From the NCBI RefSeq assembly GCF_054482595.1, contig NZ_CM137008.1: a stretch of 64,000 nt of DNA. One strand, 5' to 3'. Below the pieces are notes generated by a model that made no database searches, had not been told where the DNA came from, and saw only the letters and a list, made by a program, of their open reading frames with translations. Positions 1 to 50,159 of the stretch are shown one piece after another (position 1 is the stretch's first letter; every line of letters starts with the position of its first letter). Made by a program: the position numbers and the translations under genes.

Positions 1-1040
1 TTGGTCACATCGGTAAACTTGCTGCGGGTTCTCTGAAAGTGGGCGACGCTGTGCAGGCTGATGTTGATGAGGCTCGTCGCGCCCGTATTCGTCTGAATCA
101 CTCCGCAACGCACCTGATGCATGCTGCGCTGCGCCAGGTTCTGGGTACTCATGTATCGCAGAAAGGTTCACTGGTTAACGACAAGGTGCTGCGCTTCGAC
201 TTCTCACACAACGAAGCGATGAAACCAGAAGAGATTCGTGCGGTCGAAGACCTGGTGAACGCACAGATTCGTCGCAATTTGCCGATCGAAACCAACATCA
301 TGGATCTCGAAGCGGCGAAAGCGAAAGGTGCGATGGCGCTGTTCGGCGAGAAGTATGATGAGCGCGTACGCGTGCTGAGCATGGGCGATTTCTCCACCGA
401 GCTGTGTGGCGGTACTCACGCCAGCCGCACTGGTGATATTGGTCTGTTCCGCATCATCTCTGAATCGGGTACTGCTGCAGGCGTTCGTCGTATCGAAGCG
501 GTAACCGGAGAAGGTGCTATCGCCACCGTTCATGCAGACAGCGATCGCTTAAGCGAAGTCGCGCATCTGCTGAAAGGCGATAGCAATAATCTGGCTGATA
601 AAGTGCGCTCAGTACTGGAACGTACGCGTCAGTTAGAAAAAGAACTACAACAGCTTAAAGAACAAGCTGCCGCACAGGAGAGCGCAAATCTTTCCAGTAA
701 GGCAATTGATGTTAATGGTGTTAAGCTGTTGGTTAGCGAGCTTAGCGGTGTTGAGCCGAAAATGTGGCGTACCATGGTTGACGATTTAAAAAATCAGCTG
801 GGGTCGACAATTATCGTGCTGGCAACGGTAGCCGAAGGTAAGGTTTCTCTGATTGCAGGCGTATCTAAGGACGTCACAGATCGTGTGAAAGCAGGGGAAC
901 TGATTGGTATGGTCGCTCAGCAGGTGGGCGGCAAGGGTGGTGGACGTCCTGACATGGCGCAAGCCGGTGGTACGGATGCTGCGGCCTTACCTGCAGCGTT
1001 AGCCAGTGTGAAAGGCTGGGTCAGCGCGAAATTGCAATAA
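1..1040 (+). CDS. alaS: alanyl-tRNA synthetase, C-terminal part (5' end outside window)
   Basis: ORF runs in frame from window start; C-terminal AlaS-like sequence; followed by csrA as in the recA-alaS-csrA locus. Confidence 0.9.
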
Positions 1041-1274
1041 TATAAGCGTCAGGCAATGCCGTGGACTCGCTTCACGGCATTCGCATTAACGCTATCGACA
1101 ACGATAAAGTCAGGTTGAAGTTGTGTATATCGGCTAAACTTAGGTTTAACAGAATGTAATGCCATGACTGCTTAGATGTAATGTGTTTGTCATTGCTTAC
1201 TTTTTGGCGTTATATGATGGATAATGCCGGGATACAGAGAGACCCGACTCTTTTAATCTTTCAAGGAGCAAAGA

Positions 1275-1460
1275 ATGCTGATTCTGACTCGTCGAGTTGG
1301 TGAGACCCTCATGATTGGGGATGAGGTCACCGTGACAGTTTTAGGGGTAAAGGGCAACCAGGTACGTATTGGCGTAAATGCCCCGAAGGAAGTTTCTGTT
1401 CACCGTGAAGAGATCTACCAGCGTATCCAGGCTGAAAAATCCCAGCAGTCCAGTTACTAA
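1275..1460 (+). CDS. csrA: carbon storage regulator CsrA (61 aa)
   Basis: 61-aa [51 protein letters not shown] matches CsrA. Confidence 0.97.
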
Positions 1461-1776
1461 TCTTTCCGCGTCTCATCTTTATCGGTGAGACGCACCCTCA
1501 AAATTTCTCCTTCACTCTATAGTCTTTTCGCTTTACTCCCGTTCATTCAACTTAAGTCTCCATATTTTTTACATTACTGCTATCTGTCAGACCTCCGTTT
1601 TTCTGTTGATAAAACACTCTTTTTGACGTTTTTACAGACTAATTGAGCGTGAAGTGTGCAAACGATAAAAGTGTGGGAAAAATTGTTTGACTTATAAGTC
1701 TCAGAAAGTAATATGTGCGCCACGCAGCGACGATGAGCGATAAACAAGTTCTTCGAAGCACTCGTAAGAGGCGTGT

Positions 1777-1869
1777 GGTGAGGTGGCCGAGAGGCTGAAG
1801 GCGCTCCCCTGCTAAGGGAGTATGCGGTCAAAAGCTGCATCCGGGGTTCGAATCCCCGCCTCACCGCCA
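1777..1869 (+). tRNA. serV: tRNA-Ser (anticodon GCU), long variable arm
   Basis: 93-nt sequence GGTGAGGTGGCCGAGAGG...CCTCACCGCCA with GCT anticodon loop. Confidence 0.93.
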
Positions 1870-1872
1870 TTT

Positions 1873-1949
1873 GCATCCGTAGCTCAGCTGGATAGAGTAC
1901 TCGGCTACGAACCGAGCGGTCGGAGGTTCGAATCCTCCCGGATGCACCA
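1873..1949 (+). tRNA. argV: tRNA-Arg (anticodon ACG), copy 1 of 4
   Basis: 77-nt GCATCCGTAGCTCAGCTGGATAGAGTACTCGGCTACGAACCGAG...GATGCACCA. Confidence 0.93.
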
Positions 1950-1974
1950 TATTCTCCGTAACTTTCAGCGATGA

Positions 1975-2084
1975 AGGTATGGAAGAGGTGGCGGTACTAA
2001 CCGCAGGCACCAGGGAGGATAACGTTGCTTTAGCAACGGCCCGAAGGGCGAGCCGCAAGGCGAGTAATCCTCCCGGATGCACCA
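1975..2084 (+). repeat. tRNA-Arg 3'-end-derived spacer repeat (copy 1)
   Basis: unit ...AGGCACCAGGGAGGATAACGTTGC...AATCCTCCCGGATGCACCA ends with a duplicate of the tRNA-Arg 3' acceptor/T-arm. Confidence 0.7.
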
Positions 2085-2148
2085 TCTCTTACTTGATACG
2101 GCTTTAGTAGCGGTATCAAAAAATCTGCAGTAAAGTAAGTTTCCCGAT

Positions 2149-2225
2149 GCATCCGTAGCTCAGCTGGATAGAGTACTCGGCTACGAACCGAGCGGTCGGA
2201 GGTTCGAATCCTCCCGGATGCACCA
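2149..2225 (+). tRNA. argY: tRNA-Arg (ACG), copy 2
   Basis: identical 77-nt tRNA-Arg sequence. Confidence 0.93.
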
Positions 2226-2287
2226 TCTCTTACTTGATATGGCTTTAGTAGCGGTATCAATATCAGCAGTAAAATAAATTTCCCGAT

Positions 2288-2364
2288 GCATCCGTAGCTC
2301 AGCTGGATAGAGTACTCGGCTACGAACCGAGCGGTCGGAGGTTCGAATCCTCCCGGATGCACCA
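2288..2364 (+). tRNA. argZ: tRNA-Arg (ACG), copy 3
   Basis: identical 77-nt tRNA-Arg sequence. Confidence 0.93.
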
Positions 2365-2394
2365 TATTCTCCGAAATCTTCAGCAATGAAGATA

Positions 2395-2499
2395 TCGAAG
2401 AGGTAGCGGAATTAACCGCAGGCACCAGGGAGGATAACGTTGCGCCAGCAACGGCCCGAAGGGCGAGCCGCAAGGCGAGTAATCCTCCCGGATGCACCA
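2395..2499 (+). repeat. tRNA-Arg 3'-end-derived spacer repeat (copy 2)
   Basis: near-identical to unit at 1975-2084. Confidence 0.7.
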
Positions 2500-2562
2500 T
2501 CTCTTACTTGATATGGCTTTAGTAGCGATATCAATATCAGCAGTAAAATAAATTTTCCCGAT

Positions 2563-2639
2563 GCATCCGTAGCTCAGCTGGATAGAGTACTCGGCTACGA
2601 ACCGAGCGGTCGGAGGTTCGAATCCTCCCGGATGCACCA
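2563..2639 (+). tRNA. argQ: tRNA-Arg (ACG), copy 4
   Basis: identical 77-nt tRNA-Arg sequence. Confidence 0.93.
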
Positions 2640-2688
2640 TATTCTCCGAAATCTTCAGCAATGAAGATATCGAAGAGGTAGCGGAATT

Positions 2689-2772
2689 AACCGCAGGCAC
2701 CAGGAAGGATAACGTTGCTTTAGCAACGGCCCGAAGGGCGAACGCCAGTGAGTCATCCTCCCGGATGCACCA
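2689..2772 (+). repeat. tRNA-Arg 3'-end-derived spacer repeat (copy 3, more diverged)
   Basis: third copy of GGATAACGTTGCTTTAGCAACGGCCCGAAGGGCGA...CCTCCCGGATGCACCA unit. Confidence 0.65.
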
Positions 2773-2919
2773 TCTTCTCCAAAAAATTTCCTTCAAAAAT
2801 ATCTCATTTCTAAATAACTACTTTATCCATTTCCTGAATTTTCTTCTCCTTCGCCATCAGCGACAAAATCAAGCAATTACGCTAAAGTAGCGTCATATTT
2901 TTCGACTTGCGAGAAGACC

Positions 2920-3486
2920 ATGTACGAGCGTTATGCAGGTTTAATTTTTGATATGGATGGCACAATCCTGGATACGGAGCCTACGCACCGTAAAGCGTGG
3001 CGCGAAGTATTAGGGCACTACGGTCTTCAGTACGATGTTCAGGCGATGATTGCGCTTAATGGATCGCCCACCTGGCGTATTGCTCAGGCAATTATTGAGC
3101 TGAATCAGGCCGATCTCGACCCGCATGCGTTAGCGCGTGAAAAAACAGAAGCAGTAAGAAGTATGCTACTGGATAGTGTCGAGCCGCTTCCTCTTGTTGA
3201 AGTGGTGAAAAGTTGGCATGGTCGTCGCCCAATGGCTGTAGGAACGGGGAGTGAAAGCGCCATCGCTGAGGCATTGCTGGCTCACCTGGGATTACGCCGT
3301 TATTTTGACGCCGTCGTCGCTGCCGATCACGTCCAACACCATAAACCTGCGCCAGACACATTTTTGTTGTGCGCGCAGCGTATGGGCGTGAAACCGACAC
3401 AGTGTGTGGTCTTTGAAGATGCCGATTTCGGTATTCAGGCGGCCCGTGCAGCAGGCATGGACGCTGTGGATGTTCGCTTGCTGTGA
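2920..3486 (+). CDS. yqaB: HAD-family sugar phosphatase YqaB
   Basis: 188-aa ORF with HAD motif FDMDGTILDTE; locus position next to arg tRNAs. Confidence 0.9.
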   Translation: MYERYAGLIFDMDGTILDTEPTHRKAWREVLGHYGLQYDVQAMIALNGSPTWRIAQAIIELNQADLDPHALAREKTEAVRSMLLDSVEPLPLVEVVKSWHGRRPMAVGTGSESAIAEALLAHLGLRRYFDAVVAADHVQHHKPAPDTFLLCAQRMGVKPTQCVVFEDADFGIQAARAAGMDAVDVRLL

Positions 3487-3911
3487 GTGAAGCGTTATCG
3501 CTTTTCTCGTTGTTTGCCAGTAGTTTTCTCAGCGCTACACTATTACCCGGCAACTCCGAAGTCGTGCTGGTGGCAATGTTGCTTTCCGGGATCAGTCATC
3601 CCTGGGTTTTAGTTTTAACAGCAACAATGGGTAATAGCCTTGGAGGGTTAACTAACGTTATCCTTGGGCGTTTCTTTCCATTGCGTAAAACATCGCGCTG
3701 GCAAGAGAAAGCTACCGGCTGGCTGAAACGCTATGGTGCAGTCACGCTATTATTAAGCTGGATGCCCGTGGTTGGCGATTTACTGTGTCTGTTAGCGGGA
3801 TGGATGCGCATCTCCTGGGGGCCAGTAATCTTTTTTTTGTGCCTTGGTAAAGCGTTACGCTATGTTGCAGTTGCAGCAGCGACCGTTCAGGGCATGATGT
3901 GGTGGCACTAA
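3483..3911 (+). CDS. yqaA: DedA-family inner membrane protein YqaA
   Basis: 142-aa hydrophobic ORF overlapping yqaB stop by 4 nt. Confidence 0.88.
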   Translation: MSEALSLFSLFASSFLSATLLPGNSEVVLVAMLLSGISHPWVLVLTATMGNSLGGLTNVILGRFFPLRKTSRWQEKATGWLKRYGAVTLLLSWMPVVGDLLCLLAGWMRISWGPVIFFLCLGKALRYVAVAAATVQGMMWWH

Positions 3912-3956
3912 TTGTAGGCCTGCACATATGGTCACCATTACAGTTATGCTAATTAA

Positions 3957-5540
<1,584 letters not shown>

Positions 5541-45461: not shown

Positions 45462-45480
45462 GGCGTGGCGGGGAGAGCAT
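45462..45480. other. cos-like site (P2/P4 cohesive-end-like 19-mer)
   Basis: GGCGTGGCGGGGAGAGCAT matches the recalled P2/P4 cos GGCGAGGCGGGGAAAGCAC at 16 of 19 positions. Confidence 0.45.
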
Positions 45481-45690
45481 TGCGCGCGGAGTGGGTGTTT
45501 TATTTTTTGTATGTCACATAAACTTAAGGTATGCAGTACGTAGCTAGTTTCACTAATACTGGGACGAAAAGAATGGTGCGTTTGTAAAAATGTATTTTAA
45601 TTTTTGGATTGTGATACAGAGTAAATTTCATTTAATTTTGTATTTTAATTGCGGTAAGCTATAACAAACTTGAAAAGGAATTATAATCAC

Positions 45691-47352
45691 ATGAGGTATG
45701 TTGAAAATATGAAAATTCTAGTAACTGCACCTTCAAGAAAAAATCACCCAAAAAATAATGTATTGTATGATTTTATATTGCAACAAGATGATTGGAATGA
45801 TTTTAGTTTTATCACTAAGTATCATTTATACATTACAACGAAACTTACTGGTCTTGATGAAATAGAGTATGCTGGGGTTGTTAAAATTATAAAAAAAGAT
45901 CAGTCTGAAGCTGATTACTACATGGTTGAAGAAGGCGAGTTTTCATATTTGAGTGACGAGTTTTGTTCTGTGGGACAATCTCTTGATTATTATGGGAGGC
46001 TCTCTGAATTGGGGAGTGAAATTTGTGAGGGGATATTGACATCATTACGCGACATTAATATGTTTGATTATGTTTCTGAGGGTTTCAAAAATGAAAGAGC
46101 TTGGGAACGTTCTATCATGAGAGACTTAAATAATGATGATGATATTTTTATTCTTCCAAAGTTTATAATAAAAAATCAGTTCTCGGCTATACCTAGTATA
46201 GACATGAAGTTTTCATTTATGTATTCAGGAATGATTAATACTCTTTCGTTTGATTTCGATTCAATACAATATGGATATTTTGAAAGTGAAAAACTACCAT
46301 GTAGAATGTCCGTAATTGTAGGCCGGAACGGTTGTGGGAAGAGTACAACATTGGCAAGACTTTCTAGGGTTGCTTATTCTTCAACTCAGGACAGAAAAAA
46401 AGAACAGATAGCCAAAATTGGTGAAATTCTTCCAGAGGGATTAGGTTTTCCGAAAATAATCAACCTTTCATACAGTGCTTTTGATAGTTTTCAAATACCC
46501 GGGTGTACTTTTAAAGAAAAGAAACAGCTAAGGCAAGACATACTTGATGGGAAAGGTAGGTATATATATTGCGGAGTCAGGGATGTTGGTGCTGAATTGG
46601 ATTATGTATTGGCTAATGTAGATGAAAACAATATGGATATAGAGTTTATTACATTAGATAGGCAAGAGAGAACCATATTAAAACCTCTTGAAGTACTTAG
46701 TGAAGAGTTTTATGGTGTCTTGATAAAAATACATAAAGATAGTGATAAGTGGAATTTGTTTAATAAAGTGATGATGAAGTTGAGAGAAGAGGTTTCATTA
46801 TCTGAAATTATTGATGAAATCTTTAAAGATGATTTTATTCTTAAATCTAAAGAATATTTTCATAGGTTGAGTACAGGGCATAAATTTGTTTTGCATTCGA
46901 TGGCGCATATTTTGTTGTATATTGAAAAAAGATGCCTTGTTTTATTTGATGAGCCTGAAACTCATTTGCACCCGCCATTGCTTGCGGTTTTAATGAGCGC
47001 TCTGAGAATTGTTTTGAACGAAGTCGATGCTTTTGCTATTGTTGCTACTCATTCACCTGTGGTAGTACAAGAAACATTAAGTAAAAATGTTAATGTTATA
47101 ACTAGAAATGGGGAGTTTACTGATTTTCAACGACCTGAAATTGAAACTTTTGGTGAGAATATTGGAGCAATAACATCATCAGTATTTTCATTAACGACTC
47201 AAATAACTGATTATCATGATGAATTAGACAAGCTAATAATAGAATATAAAAATAATAATAATCCATTAGATGACATTGAAAAATGTTTTGATACAGGTCT
47301 TAGTACACAAGCAAGGTCTTATGTAATATCTAAATTAGCGGTAAAAGGATAA
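45691..47352 (+). CDS. ABC-type (AAA15/AAA21, OLD-family-like) ATPase with about 200-aa N-terminal domain of unknown function
   Basis: Walker A GRNGCGKST, signature-like LSTGHK, Walker B LVLFDEPETHLHP, H-loop ATHSP; SD AAGGA 11 nt upstream of ATG. Confidence 0.8.
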   Translation: MRYVENMKILVTAPSRKNHPKNNVLYDFILQQDDWNDFSFITKYHLYITTKLTGLDEIEYAGVVKIIKKDQSEADYYMVEEGEFSYLSDEFCSVGQSLDYYGRLSELGSEICEGILTSLRDINMFDYVSEGFKNERAWERSIMRDLNNDDDIFILPKFIIKNQFSAIPSIDMKFSFMYSGMINTLSFDFDSIQYGYFESEKLPCRMSVIVGRNGCGKSTTLARLSRVAYSSTQDRKKEQIAKIGEILPEGLGFPKIINLSYSAFDSFQIPGCTFKEKKQLRQDILDGKGRYIYCGVRDVGAELDYVLANVDENNMDIEFITLDRQERTILKPLEVLSEEFYGVLIKIHKDSDKWNLFNKVMMKLREEVSLSEIIDEIFKDDFILKSKEYFHRLSTGHKFVLHSMAHILLYIEKRCLVLFDEPETHLHPPLLAVLMSALRIVLNEVDAFAIVATHSPVVVQETLSKNVNVITRNGEFTDFQRPEIETFGENIGAITSSVFSLTTQITDYHDELDKLIIEYKNNNNPLDDIEKCFDTGLSTQARSYVISKLAVKG

Positions 47353-47357
47353 TACAT

Positions 47358-48203
47358 ATGTGGACACTACCTTTACCAGATGATGCGGATAGAATGAGCG
47401 AGTTATTAACCGCTTTAACGTATAAAAATGGAAATCCTAAGTATGCTTTAACACAAGATGAAAAGGATAAAATTGAAACTATTTATACTTTATATCACGA
47501 TCGTAAAGCAACTCCCTGTGCTGAATTTTTAGCAGAGGAAATAAGTGATGAAACCCAAAATGCTATAAAAACAGCTTATTCAGAAGTGCAAATAAATGGA
47601 CGGCTTTCAACCCTTCGCTCAAGGATTTTATTAAGTTCTAAAAAATGCCCATTATGTGGGATCGAATCATCAACCGACCTAGATCATTATCTTCCCGAAT
47701 CAATATATAAATGTCTCGCAGTATATTCAAGAAACCTGATACCGACCTGTCATAAGTGCAATAATAAAAAAAGAGCTGGTGTAGCAGAAAATGGAGTTGG
47801 ATTTATTCATGTGTATTATTTTGATGAGCCCGATGGTGTATTTTTCGTTGCCAATACTGAAATGATAGATGGTGCTTTAGTAATTGATTTTAATATCAAT
47901 ATGATCGAGGGTATGACTCGAGAGGTATATGATTCATTATGCTTTCAAAATAGAGTTGTTAACCTAAATGAAAGGTTAAAGATGGAAGCGAATGATTTTT
48001 TAGGGGGGCTCTATACTTCACTTGAAGAAACATATAATTCTGCAGGCCAAGAAGGATTAAGATTATTTCTAAAAAGAACTAGGGATGACTATACCAGACG
48101 TTATGGGCTTAATCATTGGAGAAGAGCATTGATAGATAGTCTATCCGATAATGTGGAGTTCCTTGACGCTGGTTTTATTACTGCCTTAGGAACTCCAGAG
48201 TGA
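47358..48203 (+). CDS. HNH endonuclease-domain protein (281 aa)
   Basis: CPLCG...DLDHYLPESIY...NLIPTCHKCNNKK HNH/zinc-finger motif; start 5 nt after the ATPase stop. Confidence 0.8.
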   Translation: MWTLPLPDDADRMSELLTALTYKNGNPKYALTQDEKDKIETIYTLYHDRKATPCAEFLAEEISDETQNAIKTAYSEVQINGRLSTLRSRILLSSKKCPLCGIESSTDLDHYLPESIYKCLAVYSRNLIPTCHKCNNKKRAGVAENGVGFIHVYYFDEPDGVFFVANTEMIDGALVIDFNINMIEGMTREVYDSLCFQNRVVNLNERLKMEANDFLGGLYTSLEETYNSAGQEGLRLFLKRTRDDYTRRYGLNHWRRALIDSLSDNVEFLDAGFITALGTPE

Positions 48204-48205
48204 GT

Positions 48206-49399
48206 TTACTGGTGGGGATGAATATGTCGTCCCCACCAATTCATCAATTCAATTCTTGCGTGTAAATATGTTGAGCGATTGTAGGCTTTTCGTACTTCAT
48301 TTCTATCTGAATGAGCAAGAGCAGCCTCAATTACATCAGCATTAAAACCGGCTTCATTCATTGCCGTACTTGCAATCGAACGTAAACCATGTGCAACCAA
48401 TTTCCCACCATAACCTATTCGCTTAAGTGCAGCATTGGCAGTTTGGCTATTCATAGGTTGTTTTGGATTATTTCTGCTGGGAAAAACATGTTCTCGATGT
48501 GCACTAATAGGTTTCATCACATCCAGAATTTCTAATGCTTGTGGTGATAAAGGAACAATGTGTTCACGCTTAGCCTTCATTCGTTCGGCGGGAATCGTCC
48601 AGAGTTTGGCATTGAGATCGATCTCTACCCACCGAGCACCAGAAGCCTCAGAAGGGCGCACTAGGGTCAGAAGCTGCCATTCAATAAGACAGCGAGTCGG
48701 AACAGACAGATTCGACATGACCAGGGAACGCATAAGCTTAGGTAATTCTTCTGGCCGTAGCGTGGGCATATTTTGCTTTTTGGGTTTCTCAAAAGCCATT
48801 CCTACACCCGAAGCCGGGTTGGCATCTATCAGACCGGTATTAACCGCATAAATCATTATTTCGTTAATACGCTGAACTAGGCGACGAACCGTCTCTAATG
48901 CGCCACGTGCTTTGATTGGCTCCAATGCTTCAACAATCGTTCTGGCCTTTATATCCTGAACGGGCATCGCACCGATTGCCGGGAACACGTCTTTATCCAA
49001 AGAACGCCAAATATCCTTTGCATAATCCTCTGTGACACTTCTGCTTTTAATCTGGAACCAGTTAGCGGCCACAGTTGAGAAAATGCTGTCTAACTCAATC
49101 TGGCGTTGTGCTGACGCTTGCTCCTGTTGCTGTTGTGGATCCATGCCTTGCGCGAGCGTGGTTAAGTGCTGGTCGCGTATCTGACGAGCTGCTGCGAGTG
49201 TAAGGGCAGGGTATGAGCCGAGACTCAAATTTGTGCGGCTGCTGCTTCCCGGTCGTTGATAACGGAAGCGTCAGAGTTTTTTACCGGAGGTTTTGACGAG
49301 TAAGAACAGGCCATCACCATCATGCAGGGTGAAGTCTTTTTCGCGGGGTTTCGCTTTGAGGATTTCGTTGTTAGTGAGGGGGCGTGTAATGCGCGCCAT
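48206..49399 (-). pseudogene. intA: P4-type tyrosine integrase with in-frame TGA at codon 43
   Basis: N-terminus MARITRPLTNNEILKAKPREKDFTLHDGDGLFLLVKTSGKKL then TGA then RFRYQRPGSSSRTNLSLGSYPALT... in the same frame; stop sits where related integrases have Trp (TGG). Confidence 0.75.
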
Positions 49400-49449
49400 G
49401 TCTGGATCCCTTCCATAATTGGTACACGTTTAATGGACCACAGTATAGC

Positions 49450-49477
49450 GTGTACCTAAACGTGTACCAATTTTCTC
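49450..49477 (+). repeat. 28-bp direct repeat (int-proximal copy)
   Basis: GTGTACCTAAACGTGTACCAATTTTCTC identical to 42613-42640. Confidence 0.8.
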
Positions 49478-49514
49478 TGGATTTAGCCGGATGTTCTCGG
49501 ACAACGACAGACAC

Positions 49515-49548
49515 AAAAAAGCCCGCAGGGCTTGTGCCGTGCGGGCTT
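49515..49548 (-). terminator. intrinsic terminator downstream of ssrA
   Basis: minus-strand hairpin GCCCGCACGGCACAAGCCCTGCGGGC followed by TTTTTT. Confidence 0.7.
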
Positions 49549-49582
49549 TCTGTACTTCACCGGACGTATCCGGATCATCATT

Positions 49583-49945
49583 TGGTGGAGCTGGCGGGAG
49601 TTGAACCCGCGTCCGAAATTCCTACGTCCTCGGTACTACATGCTTAGTCAGTCTTTACATTCGCTTGCCAGCTGCGGACGGACACGCCACTAACAAACTA
49701 GCCTGATTAAGTTTTAACGCTTCAACCCCAGGCAGGGCCTCCACGCGATCTCTTTTGGGTTTGACCTCTCTTGATCCCCGTCCTAAGAGCGGAGGCTAGG
49801 GAGAGAGGGCTCTAAGCAGGTTATTAAGCTGCTAAAGCGTAGTTTTCGTCGTTTGCGACTATTTTTTGCGGCTTTTTACGAGGCCAACCGCCCCTCGGCA
49901 TGCACCTTGGGTTTCGCAAATCCCGTCGAATCCAGAATCAGCCCC
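49583..49945 (-). ncRNA. ssrA: tmRNA (SsrA), 363 nt
   Basis: reverse complement begins GGGGCTGATTCTGGATTCGACGGG and ends ...GCGGGTTCAACTCCCGCCAGCTCCACCA. Confidence 0.97.
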
Positions 49946-50159
49946 AATGTGTAAAGGTAAGTATACCAGATTTATGAGCGCCATGACCAGCCTCAATGGC
50001 GTTATCGTTAAAGATTTAGCGACCATGTAGCCTGATTTTTATTCGATTTAGCAATGGGATGGCAACATTTTCGTCGGATGTGATAGCCAATAAGATGTTC
50101 ATTCGCGCCGCCGGAGAGGGAGGCGCGGTGAGGAACTGGTCAATAATTGGAGTGCAGGT

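Follow-up and report, generated by a model that had tools for sequence, protein, structure and literature searches.

The window analysed here, a 64,000-nt stretch of DNA, is part of an E. coli chromosome. Positions 43400-50000 were 100% identical to the corresponding segment of strain THO-010 and 99.9-100% identical in 14 further complete genomes. Between ypjA and the ssrA and smpB genes, this locus holds the remnant of a P4-like satellite, in which a cos region lies between a broken psu gene and a predicted defence cassette. The features of the locus, in order along the window, are the following:

to 42382, + strand: ypjA.
42614..42641, + strand: far end of the element, marked by a 28-bp sequence that recurs at 49450-49477 as a direct repeat (100%).
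42693..43574, - strand: modification-dependent restriction endonuclease of the PvuRts1I/AbaSI family (PADLOC mREase_II, 4e-122).
43824..43990, + strand: crr-like replication region, one repeat unit (blastn to P4 4472-4590 and 4292-4406).
43990..44658, - strand: 3' fragment of the alpha primase-helicase gene, its last ~220 codons (tblastn to alpha aa 556-775, 91%).
44723..45292, + strand: psu pseudogene (63% identity to P4 Psu over 177 aa).
45330-45487, + strand: cos region, ~160 bp.
45670..48203, + strand: hotspot cargo, a Septu-like two-gene system with a G+C content of ~31%, a drop relative to its surroundings.
45670/45691-47352, + strand: cargo ATPase (PADLOC PDC-M01A 1e-99, PtuA 1e-73; Pfam AAA_21, AAA_15).
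47358-48203, + strand: cargo predicted HNH nuclease (PADLOC PDC-M01B 3e-37; PtuB 2e-8, weak and partial).
48206..49401, - strand: integrase pseudogene (36% identity to P4 Int).
49583..49945, - strand: ssrA (tmRNA), the integration target of the satellite (ARAGORN; Rfam RF00023, 292 bits).
from 50160, - strand: smpB.

While P4 itself integrates at leuX, the element in the window sits at ssrA and has an integrase only 36% identical to that of P4. CP4-57 of E. coli K-12, which we take to be a cryptic and degraded prophage of the P4 family at ssrA, presumably has ypjA and ileY beyond it. In the RefSeq annotation of the window, ypjA and an ileY-like gene are likewise neighbours beyond the element. 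The same pair of 28-bp repeats was observed in three intact ~11-kb satellites that occupy ssrA in other E. coli genomes (L005, L006, and L007), and these repeats are probably arm-type binding sites of the integrase. A 16-nt motif inside the 28-bp repeat is also found inverted near int (49417-49432 and 49457-49472). A search for an attR copy of the ssrA 3' end, or for any duplication of the att core, gave nothing convincing apart from the 28-bp arm-type repeat. Since no core duplication was found, the far end of the element is placed only approximately.

The cos region itself could be divided into five conserved parts:

45330..45367, + strand: distal left hairpin AAAAGCCATGCA...TGCATGGTTTTT with repeated TGCAT/ATGCA motifs (inverted repeat I1).
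45393..45412, + strand: palindrome CCGCGCCAGT/ACCGGCGCGG in the left cos flank (inverted repeat I3).
45427..45461, + strand: proximal left cos block TGCACCTGCATTAAAAGCGACCTCTTAAGCGGGCA, conserved in satellites and P2-like phages and aligning with P4, P2, and 186.
45462..45480, + strand: 19-nt cohesive-end core of the cos site, GGCGTGGCGGGGAGAGCAT.
45481..45487, + strand: conserved right flank TGCGCGC, after which conservation ends and the variable hotspot begins.

The 19-mer had been singled out in an earlier note on this DNA as cos-like, differing at 3 of 19 positions from the cohesive end of P2 and P4 as given in the note. Both reference records agree with the sequence given there and with the count of differences. 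The P4 record (NC_001609, junction 11624/1) starts with GGCGAGGCGGGGAAAGCAC, and in P2 (NC_001895) cosL/cosR are annotated on an identical stretch of 19 nt. The window core is homologous to this sequence and identical to it at 16/19 positions; the mismatches fall at positions 5, 14, and 19 (A5T, A14G, and C19T relative to P4), and directly behind the core the window has T where P4 has C. Compared with phage 186 (NC_001317), whose annotated cos at 1-19 is GGCGTGGCGGGGAAAGCAT, there was a single mismatch (18/19 identical), and the following 7 nt, TGCGCGC, were the same. When up to 3 mismatches were allowed on both strands, 45462-45480 was the sole match in the 64-kb window, with 0.01 such matches expected per window from shuffled sequences.

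Agreement at just 16/19 positions with the P2/P4 sequence could be read as a chance match of a G+C-rich stretch unrelated to cos. The expectation of 0.01 matches per window argues against this, as do flanks homologous to P4 over ~390 bp and the occurrence of the identical 19-mer, at its canonical position, in 106 satellite and phage contigs. We have therefore dropped the chance explanation, to which we attach practically no probability.

Alignment with the cos flanks, the check that the earlier note had named, revealed extended similarity. In a local alignment to the circularised P4 junction, similarity began in the 3' half of psu, continued across the 19-mer, and ended at GCGCGC, ~390 bp in all, and several blocks were shared with P2 and 186 as well. 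What P4 has in common with the window comprises the 3' half of psu, the TGCAT hairpin, the CCGCGCC...GGCGCGG palindrome, the TGCATTAAAA block, and the GCGCGC after the core. In a BLAST search, the region matched alpha and psu of P4 as well as cos regions from >60 P2-like phages. In a four-way alignment of the window, P4, P2, and 186, invariant blocks were found on either side of the 19-mer, namely the GGTGCAT and TGCAT motifs, TGCATTAAAA, AAG-GGGC, the core, and GCGCGC. The flank block that helpers and satellites share (TGCATTAAAA...GGGC on the left, GCGCGC on the right) is thus present in full around the window core. Together with the occurrence of this core in phages and satellites, the homology to the flanks of P4, P2, and 186 turns the cos-like 19-mer of the earlier note into a cos of the P2/P4 family.

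To describe how far this conservation extends, a profile anchored on the 19-mer was calculated from 84 satellite and 18 P2-like contigs. Conservation in the satellites was ~1.0 from -35 to +26 (45427-45487) and fell to the background of ~0.35 from +27 onwards. Most columns between -35 and +26 were at 0.9-1.0 in both classes of contig, and the few variable columns lay at -19 to -10. TGCGCGC directly followed the 19-mer in 82/84 satellites and in all of the P2-like contigs (18/18). Farther to the left, the palindrome block at 45393-45412 was kept in satellites and in P2-like contigs with the window cos allele; it was found in P4 and 186 and is absent from reference P2. The distal block at 45330-45367 was conserved at 0.85-1.0 in satellites and was recognisable in P2-like phages. 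TGCAT/ATGCA motifs occurred six times in 135 nt, compared with 0.28 expected. We regard both left blocks, 45330-45367 and 45393-45412, as putative recognition elements for the terminase.

The hairpin at 45330-45367 may also act as a terminator of psu transcription. A scan for consensus promoters and terminators around cos returned nothing above the shuffled expectation, and Rfam found no RNA family other than tmRNA over 41-51 kb. Ziermann and Calendar are said to have described, in 1990, a block of ~55 bp common to P2 and P4, and our four-way alignment agrees with a P2/P4-shared block of that length. Between P2-family helpers and satellites more generally, the 19-nt core with a conserved block of ~60 bp was the sole common region. 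The published statement that cos is the only region homologous between P2 and P4 (PMC9122126) is along the same lines.

The order of the locus is psu, cos, cargo, int, and then the attachment site in ssrA, which is collinear with P4 10888-11624 followed by 1-4097 and bears out the suggestion of the earlier note that a cos between psu and the hotspot follows P4 organisation. Between the psu stop codon (45290-45292) and the first base of the core (45462) there is a gap of 169 nt, which is in the same spacing class as in the satellite contigs. This is the canonical position of a satellite cos, which lies downstream of psu, while in helpers the site lies beside the portal gene. In P4 (NC_001609), psu likewise precedes cos, which is followed by the accessory gop-beta-cII slot and int. 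The two layouts are opposite: to the right of cos, P2-family helpers have the portal and terminase genes, and their hotspot is on the left (old/tin in P2), whereas in the window the hotspot is on the right of cos and psu on the left.

The earlier note further took the site as the left boundary of the variable cargo, and this could be placed to the nucleotide. Homology to L005, L006, and L007 ended at 45487, 45487, and 45490, respectively, and conservation across the 84 satellites collapsed at the same place. Given the drop at +27, the precise left edge of the psu-int defence hotspot is, as judged from these alignments, 45487/45488, which is 7 nt beyond the 19-mer. On the other side, homology to the three satellites resumed at 48230-48231, within the last int codons, and by the same comparison the right edge is 48229/48230. 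The right border lies ~24 nt inside the 3' end of int (48209-48230), with no intergenic spacer, and the same holds for L005-L007. As this border is inside int, each cassette supplies its own last ~8 integrase codons. The cassette enclosed by cos and int differed among the homologous elements: Drt3a/b in L005, an AAA and DUF4435 pair that is PARIS-like in L006, and retron St85 in L007.

That a psu-int defence hotspot of P4-like satellites directly adjoins the cos signal was reported by Rousset et al. 2022 (PMC9122126), and the cos-adjacent hotspot is also covered in PMC8628076. The arrangement in the window, with a cassette beside cos and bounded by int, shows no difference in kind from the hotspot of Rousset et al. 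(PMC9122126). It differs from the hotspot of other satellites in its PDC-M01/Septu-like cassette and in the defective state of the host satellite.

The sharpness of the left border raises the question of whether the cos end might itself be the mechanistic cause of cassette swapping, with cohesive ends that are exposed once the terminase has cut or the DNA has been injected serving as recombination substrates that fix the border, an idea put forward as speculation by Rousset et al. (PMC9122126). In 84 satellites, which between them have 70 different right flanks, the border was at one and the same nucleotide (+26/+27), as it was in the three ssrA relatives, and P2-like phages also have a hotspot adjacent to cos, all of which would suit such a mechanism. 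However, an equally sharp border is expected if selection keeps the cos block and everything beyond it varies freely. The other border, in the 3' end of int (48230), is distant from any cos, and there is no cos at the second hotspot, which lies between the primase gene and att. We therefore hold cos-driven swapping to be doubtful, with perhaps a minor share of the probability; it is compatible with our preferred reading of the site, given below, and unproven.

To determine whether the three mismatches to P2/P4 reflect decay of the site, the occurrence of the exact 19-mer in other genomes is informative. It was found in 106 IMG/VR viral contigs. About 84 of these were P4-like, with the P4 gene order alpha, orf106, cI, orf88, sid, delta, psu, and with the 19-mer 170-220 nt downstream of psu. 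A further ~19 were P2-like, with homologues of portal Q (~77%) and terminase P (~83% identity), and here the 19-mer was 175-190 nt from Q, as it is in P2. The 19-mer with the following TGCGCGC was also identical in the intact satellites L005, L006, and L007, and uncultured P2-like contigs, for example L009 and L016, had the identical 26 nt. A pattern scan with the other positions fixed returned, among the matches listed, P2-like cos sequences with A/T5, A/T14, and C/T19. Because the exact 19-mer recurs in P2-like phages and in intact satellites, the three mismatches are better described as an allele than as decay, and at the level of sequence T5/G14/T19 is a natural allele that one group of P2-like phages has in common with many of the P4-like satellites.

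Among named phages, a megablast search of INPHARED with the 61-nt block from -35 to +26 found no shared exact word of 28 nt, and the best match to that block in a distant-mode search was 90% over 61 nt. Helpers with the G14 allele are consequently known here solely as uncultured or prophage contigs. Two of the IMG/VR satellites, L014 and L043, had alpha, sid, delta, and psu products 98-99% identical to those of reference P4; both carry the T5/G14/T19 cos and not the P4 reference allele, and the integrase of L043 is of a non-P4 type (38% identity). From this mixture, the cos allele and the int module appear to be swapped independently of the satellite backbone.

The presence of the same allele and the same flank blocks in P2-like phages would also be expected if the 19-mer were the cos of a degraded P2-like helper prophage. 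Yet no homologue of P2 Q, P, or old, the only P2 proteins that were searched for, was found in the window. A psu homologue ends 170 nt upstream of the site, which is surrounded by the alpha fragment, the crr, and a P4-type int at ssrA, and the locus is collinear with the intact P4-like satellites L005-L007. Based on the psu, alpha, crr, and int context, the collinearity, and the missing P2 Q and P, a P2 prophage remnant was rejected, its probability being negligible.

While the cos region is complete, the satellite around it is not. RefSeq marks alpha, psu, and int all as pseudogenes, alpha as "missing N-terminus" and the other two as having an "internal stop". In psu, an in-frame CAG>TAG change was found at 44996-44998, where the intact L006 has CAG. 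In int, an in-frame TGG>TGA change at 49271-49273 affects codon 43, where L006 has TGG. Each of the two stops amounts to a single-base change relative to L006. The loss of alpha sequence is part of a 4.5-kb deletion in which L006 1501-6000 is missing, with the junction at ~44652-44660 corresponding to L006 positions 1500/6001. The deleted segment contained the N-terminal two-thirds of alpha, orf106, the Icd/CI (immunity/derepression) region, orf88, ori, sid, and most of delta. At the junction, alpha codon ~556 meets the 3' end of delta over a short CACC(G/A)CC microhomology. Such a microhomology points to illegitimate recombination, and not to site-specific loss, as the likely origin of the deletion.

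The core gene set of P4-like satellites has been given as int, psu, delta, sid, alpA, epsilon, and alpha (PMC8628076). Of a core in P4 order, only int and psu, both with nonsense mutations, and the last 220 codons of alpha are left in the window; sid, orf88/alpA, cI, epsilon, and ori are absent, and delta is reduced to its 3' end. Descent from an intact satellite is nevertheless clear from the 89-97% nucleotide identity to L006, which is collinear on both sides of the deletion and of the cargo. We therefore classify the element as a remnant of a P4-like satellite member and not as a functional member, and in being deleted and pseudogenised it is unlike P4. By comparison, the cos block differed at 4/161 nt from that of the intact relative HKUOPY1, approximately the same divergence as in the adjacent psu. 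As far as these counts go, it bears no sign of decay or of special conservation.

Taken together, we read the site as a P4-like satellite cos at the 3' end of E. coli ssrA that is intact in sequence and most likely a non-functional relic, and we put the probability of this reading at roughly 0.9. We infer the relic status from the genes that the element retains and lacks, since the cos block shows no damage: the element would be unable, alone, to excise, to replicate, to activate helper late genes, or to redirect capsid assembly. With psu and int as pseudogenes and 4.5 kb deleted, helper-dependent packaging of the present copy is unlikely.

In the intact relatives, by analogy with P2 and P4, the terminase of a P2-family helper would recognise the ~160-bp cos region (here 45330-45487). 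Each strand would then be nicked at one border of the 19-mer, with 19 nt between the two nicks, and the satellite genome would be taken into helper-derived capsids with 5' cohesive ends. Terminase recognition, nicking at a 19-nt distance, and packaging in P2 and P4 were reportedly established by Ziermann and Calendar in 1990 and by Lindqvist and colleagues in 1993, both as cited by Rousset et al. (PMC9122126). The contribution of the present comparison is the homology of the window site, its position, and the sharing of its allele with helpers and intact satellites, all at the level of sequence alignment.

It is conceivable that the remnant is still mobilised wholly in trans by a P2-like helper, possibly with the assistance of a second, intact P4-like satellite, which between them would have to provide integrase and excision functions, replication, late-gene activation, and capsid. 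Several observations would fit: no part of the cos region is damaged, and it differs from that of intact relatives by 2.5% at most or not at all; both defence cassettes have intact reading frames; the defects in psu and int are single nonsense mutations, indicating recent decay; and 15 genomes from a variety of hosts have the locus at 99.9-100% identity. Those 15 near-identical copies, however, are all at the same chromosomal locus, as vertical descent would predict. The element measures ~7 kb from att to att, compared with ~11.6 kb in P4, and has lost ori, the N-terminal primase domains of alpha, sid, most of delta, and epsilon, while int is stopped at codon 43. Neither a second cos nor any homologue of P2 Q, P, or old, the P2 proteins looked for, is present in the window, and the carrier genomes each gave a single megablast match to the cos block, a search that helpers with other alleles would escape. 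We consider mobilisation in trans very unlikely.

A different possibility is that the intact cos persists because it still acts in place, as a chromosomal, non-excisable site that is cut by the terminase of P2-like phages upon their induction or infection and thereby affects transduction or defence. We give this only a very slim chance. If it were true, packaging in situ might move the adjacent defence cassettes and the ssrA-side chromosome into particles, amounting to cos-driven lateral transduction. Alternatively, the site could be a decoy for the terminase or a trigger of chromosome breakage, which would add to the anti-phage effect of the remnant.

Returning to the reading of the site as the cos of a satellite relic, the cargo beside it was evaluated against defence-system profiles. 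By PADLOC profiles, the cassette is predicted to belong to anti-phage defence families. Its best PADLOC matches were to a separate candidate family, PDC-M01, ahead of Septu PtuA/PtuB, and Pfam found no HNH domain in the second cargo protein. We use "Septu-like" as the safest label for a system predicted in this way. P4 carries gop/beta/cII as its cargo where the window has the Septu-like pair, and no PDC-M01/Septu-like cassette was found among the 106 sampled contigs.

The remnant contains a second candidate defence gene at its other end. The restriction endonuclease at 42693..43574 combines the Pfam domains PvuRts1I-like_N (N-terminal nuclease) and SRA. It sits in a 1,023-bp stretch, 42637-43659, which takes the place of ~92 bp of L006, and the intact satellite L024 has a 99% identical endonuclease gene in the same position. 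Enclosed by crr and the arm repeat on the att side, this stretch represents the minor (primase-to-att) hotspot of P4-like satellites. With the endonuclease in the att-to-primase slot and the Septu-like cargo between psu and int, the remnant has defence genes in both hotspots, a combination found in only ~1% of P4-like elements according to a 2026 preprint. The reading frames of both defence cassettes are open.

Both P2/P4 packaging and the cos-adjacent hotspot are already published, and the same sequence is present in annotated RefSeq genomes. The current view of P2/P4 packaging and of the hotspot is left unchanged by the locus, and its value is mainly one of annotation, in that a satellite remnant at ssrA with defence genes is now identified and delimited. 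The three mismatches to the P2/P4 cohesive end are accounted for as a natural cos allele common to some P2-like phages. Mobility genes have been lost while the anti-phage cassettes in both P4 hotspots have stayed open, which fits the idea that hosts domesticate satellite-borne defence.

Two further observations concern tRNA genes elsewhere in the window. The tRNA with a CAU anticodon at 34593-34668 is called Met by ARAGORN and tRNA-Ile (ileY-like) by RefSeq. ileY is the attachment site of phage 186, and no prophage was evident next to the ileY-like tRNA in the window, where ypjCB and ypjA come next. A cluster at 1777-2639 is of the serV-argV type, with one tRNA-Ser and four tRNA-Arg with the anticodon ACG.
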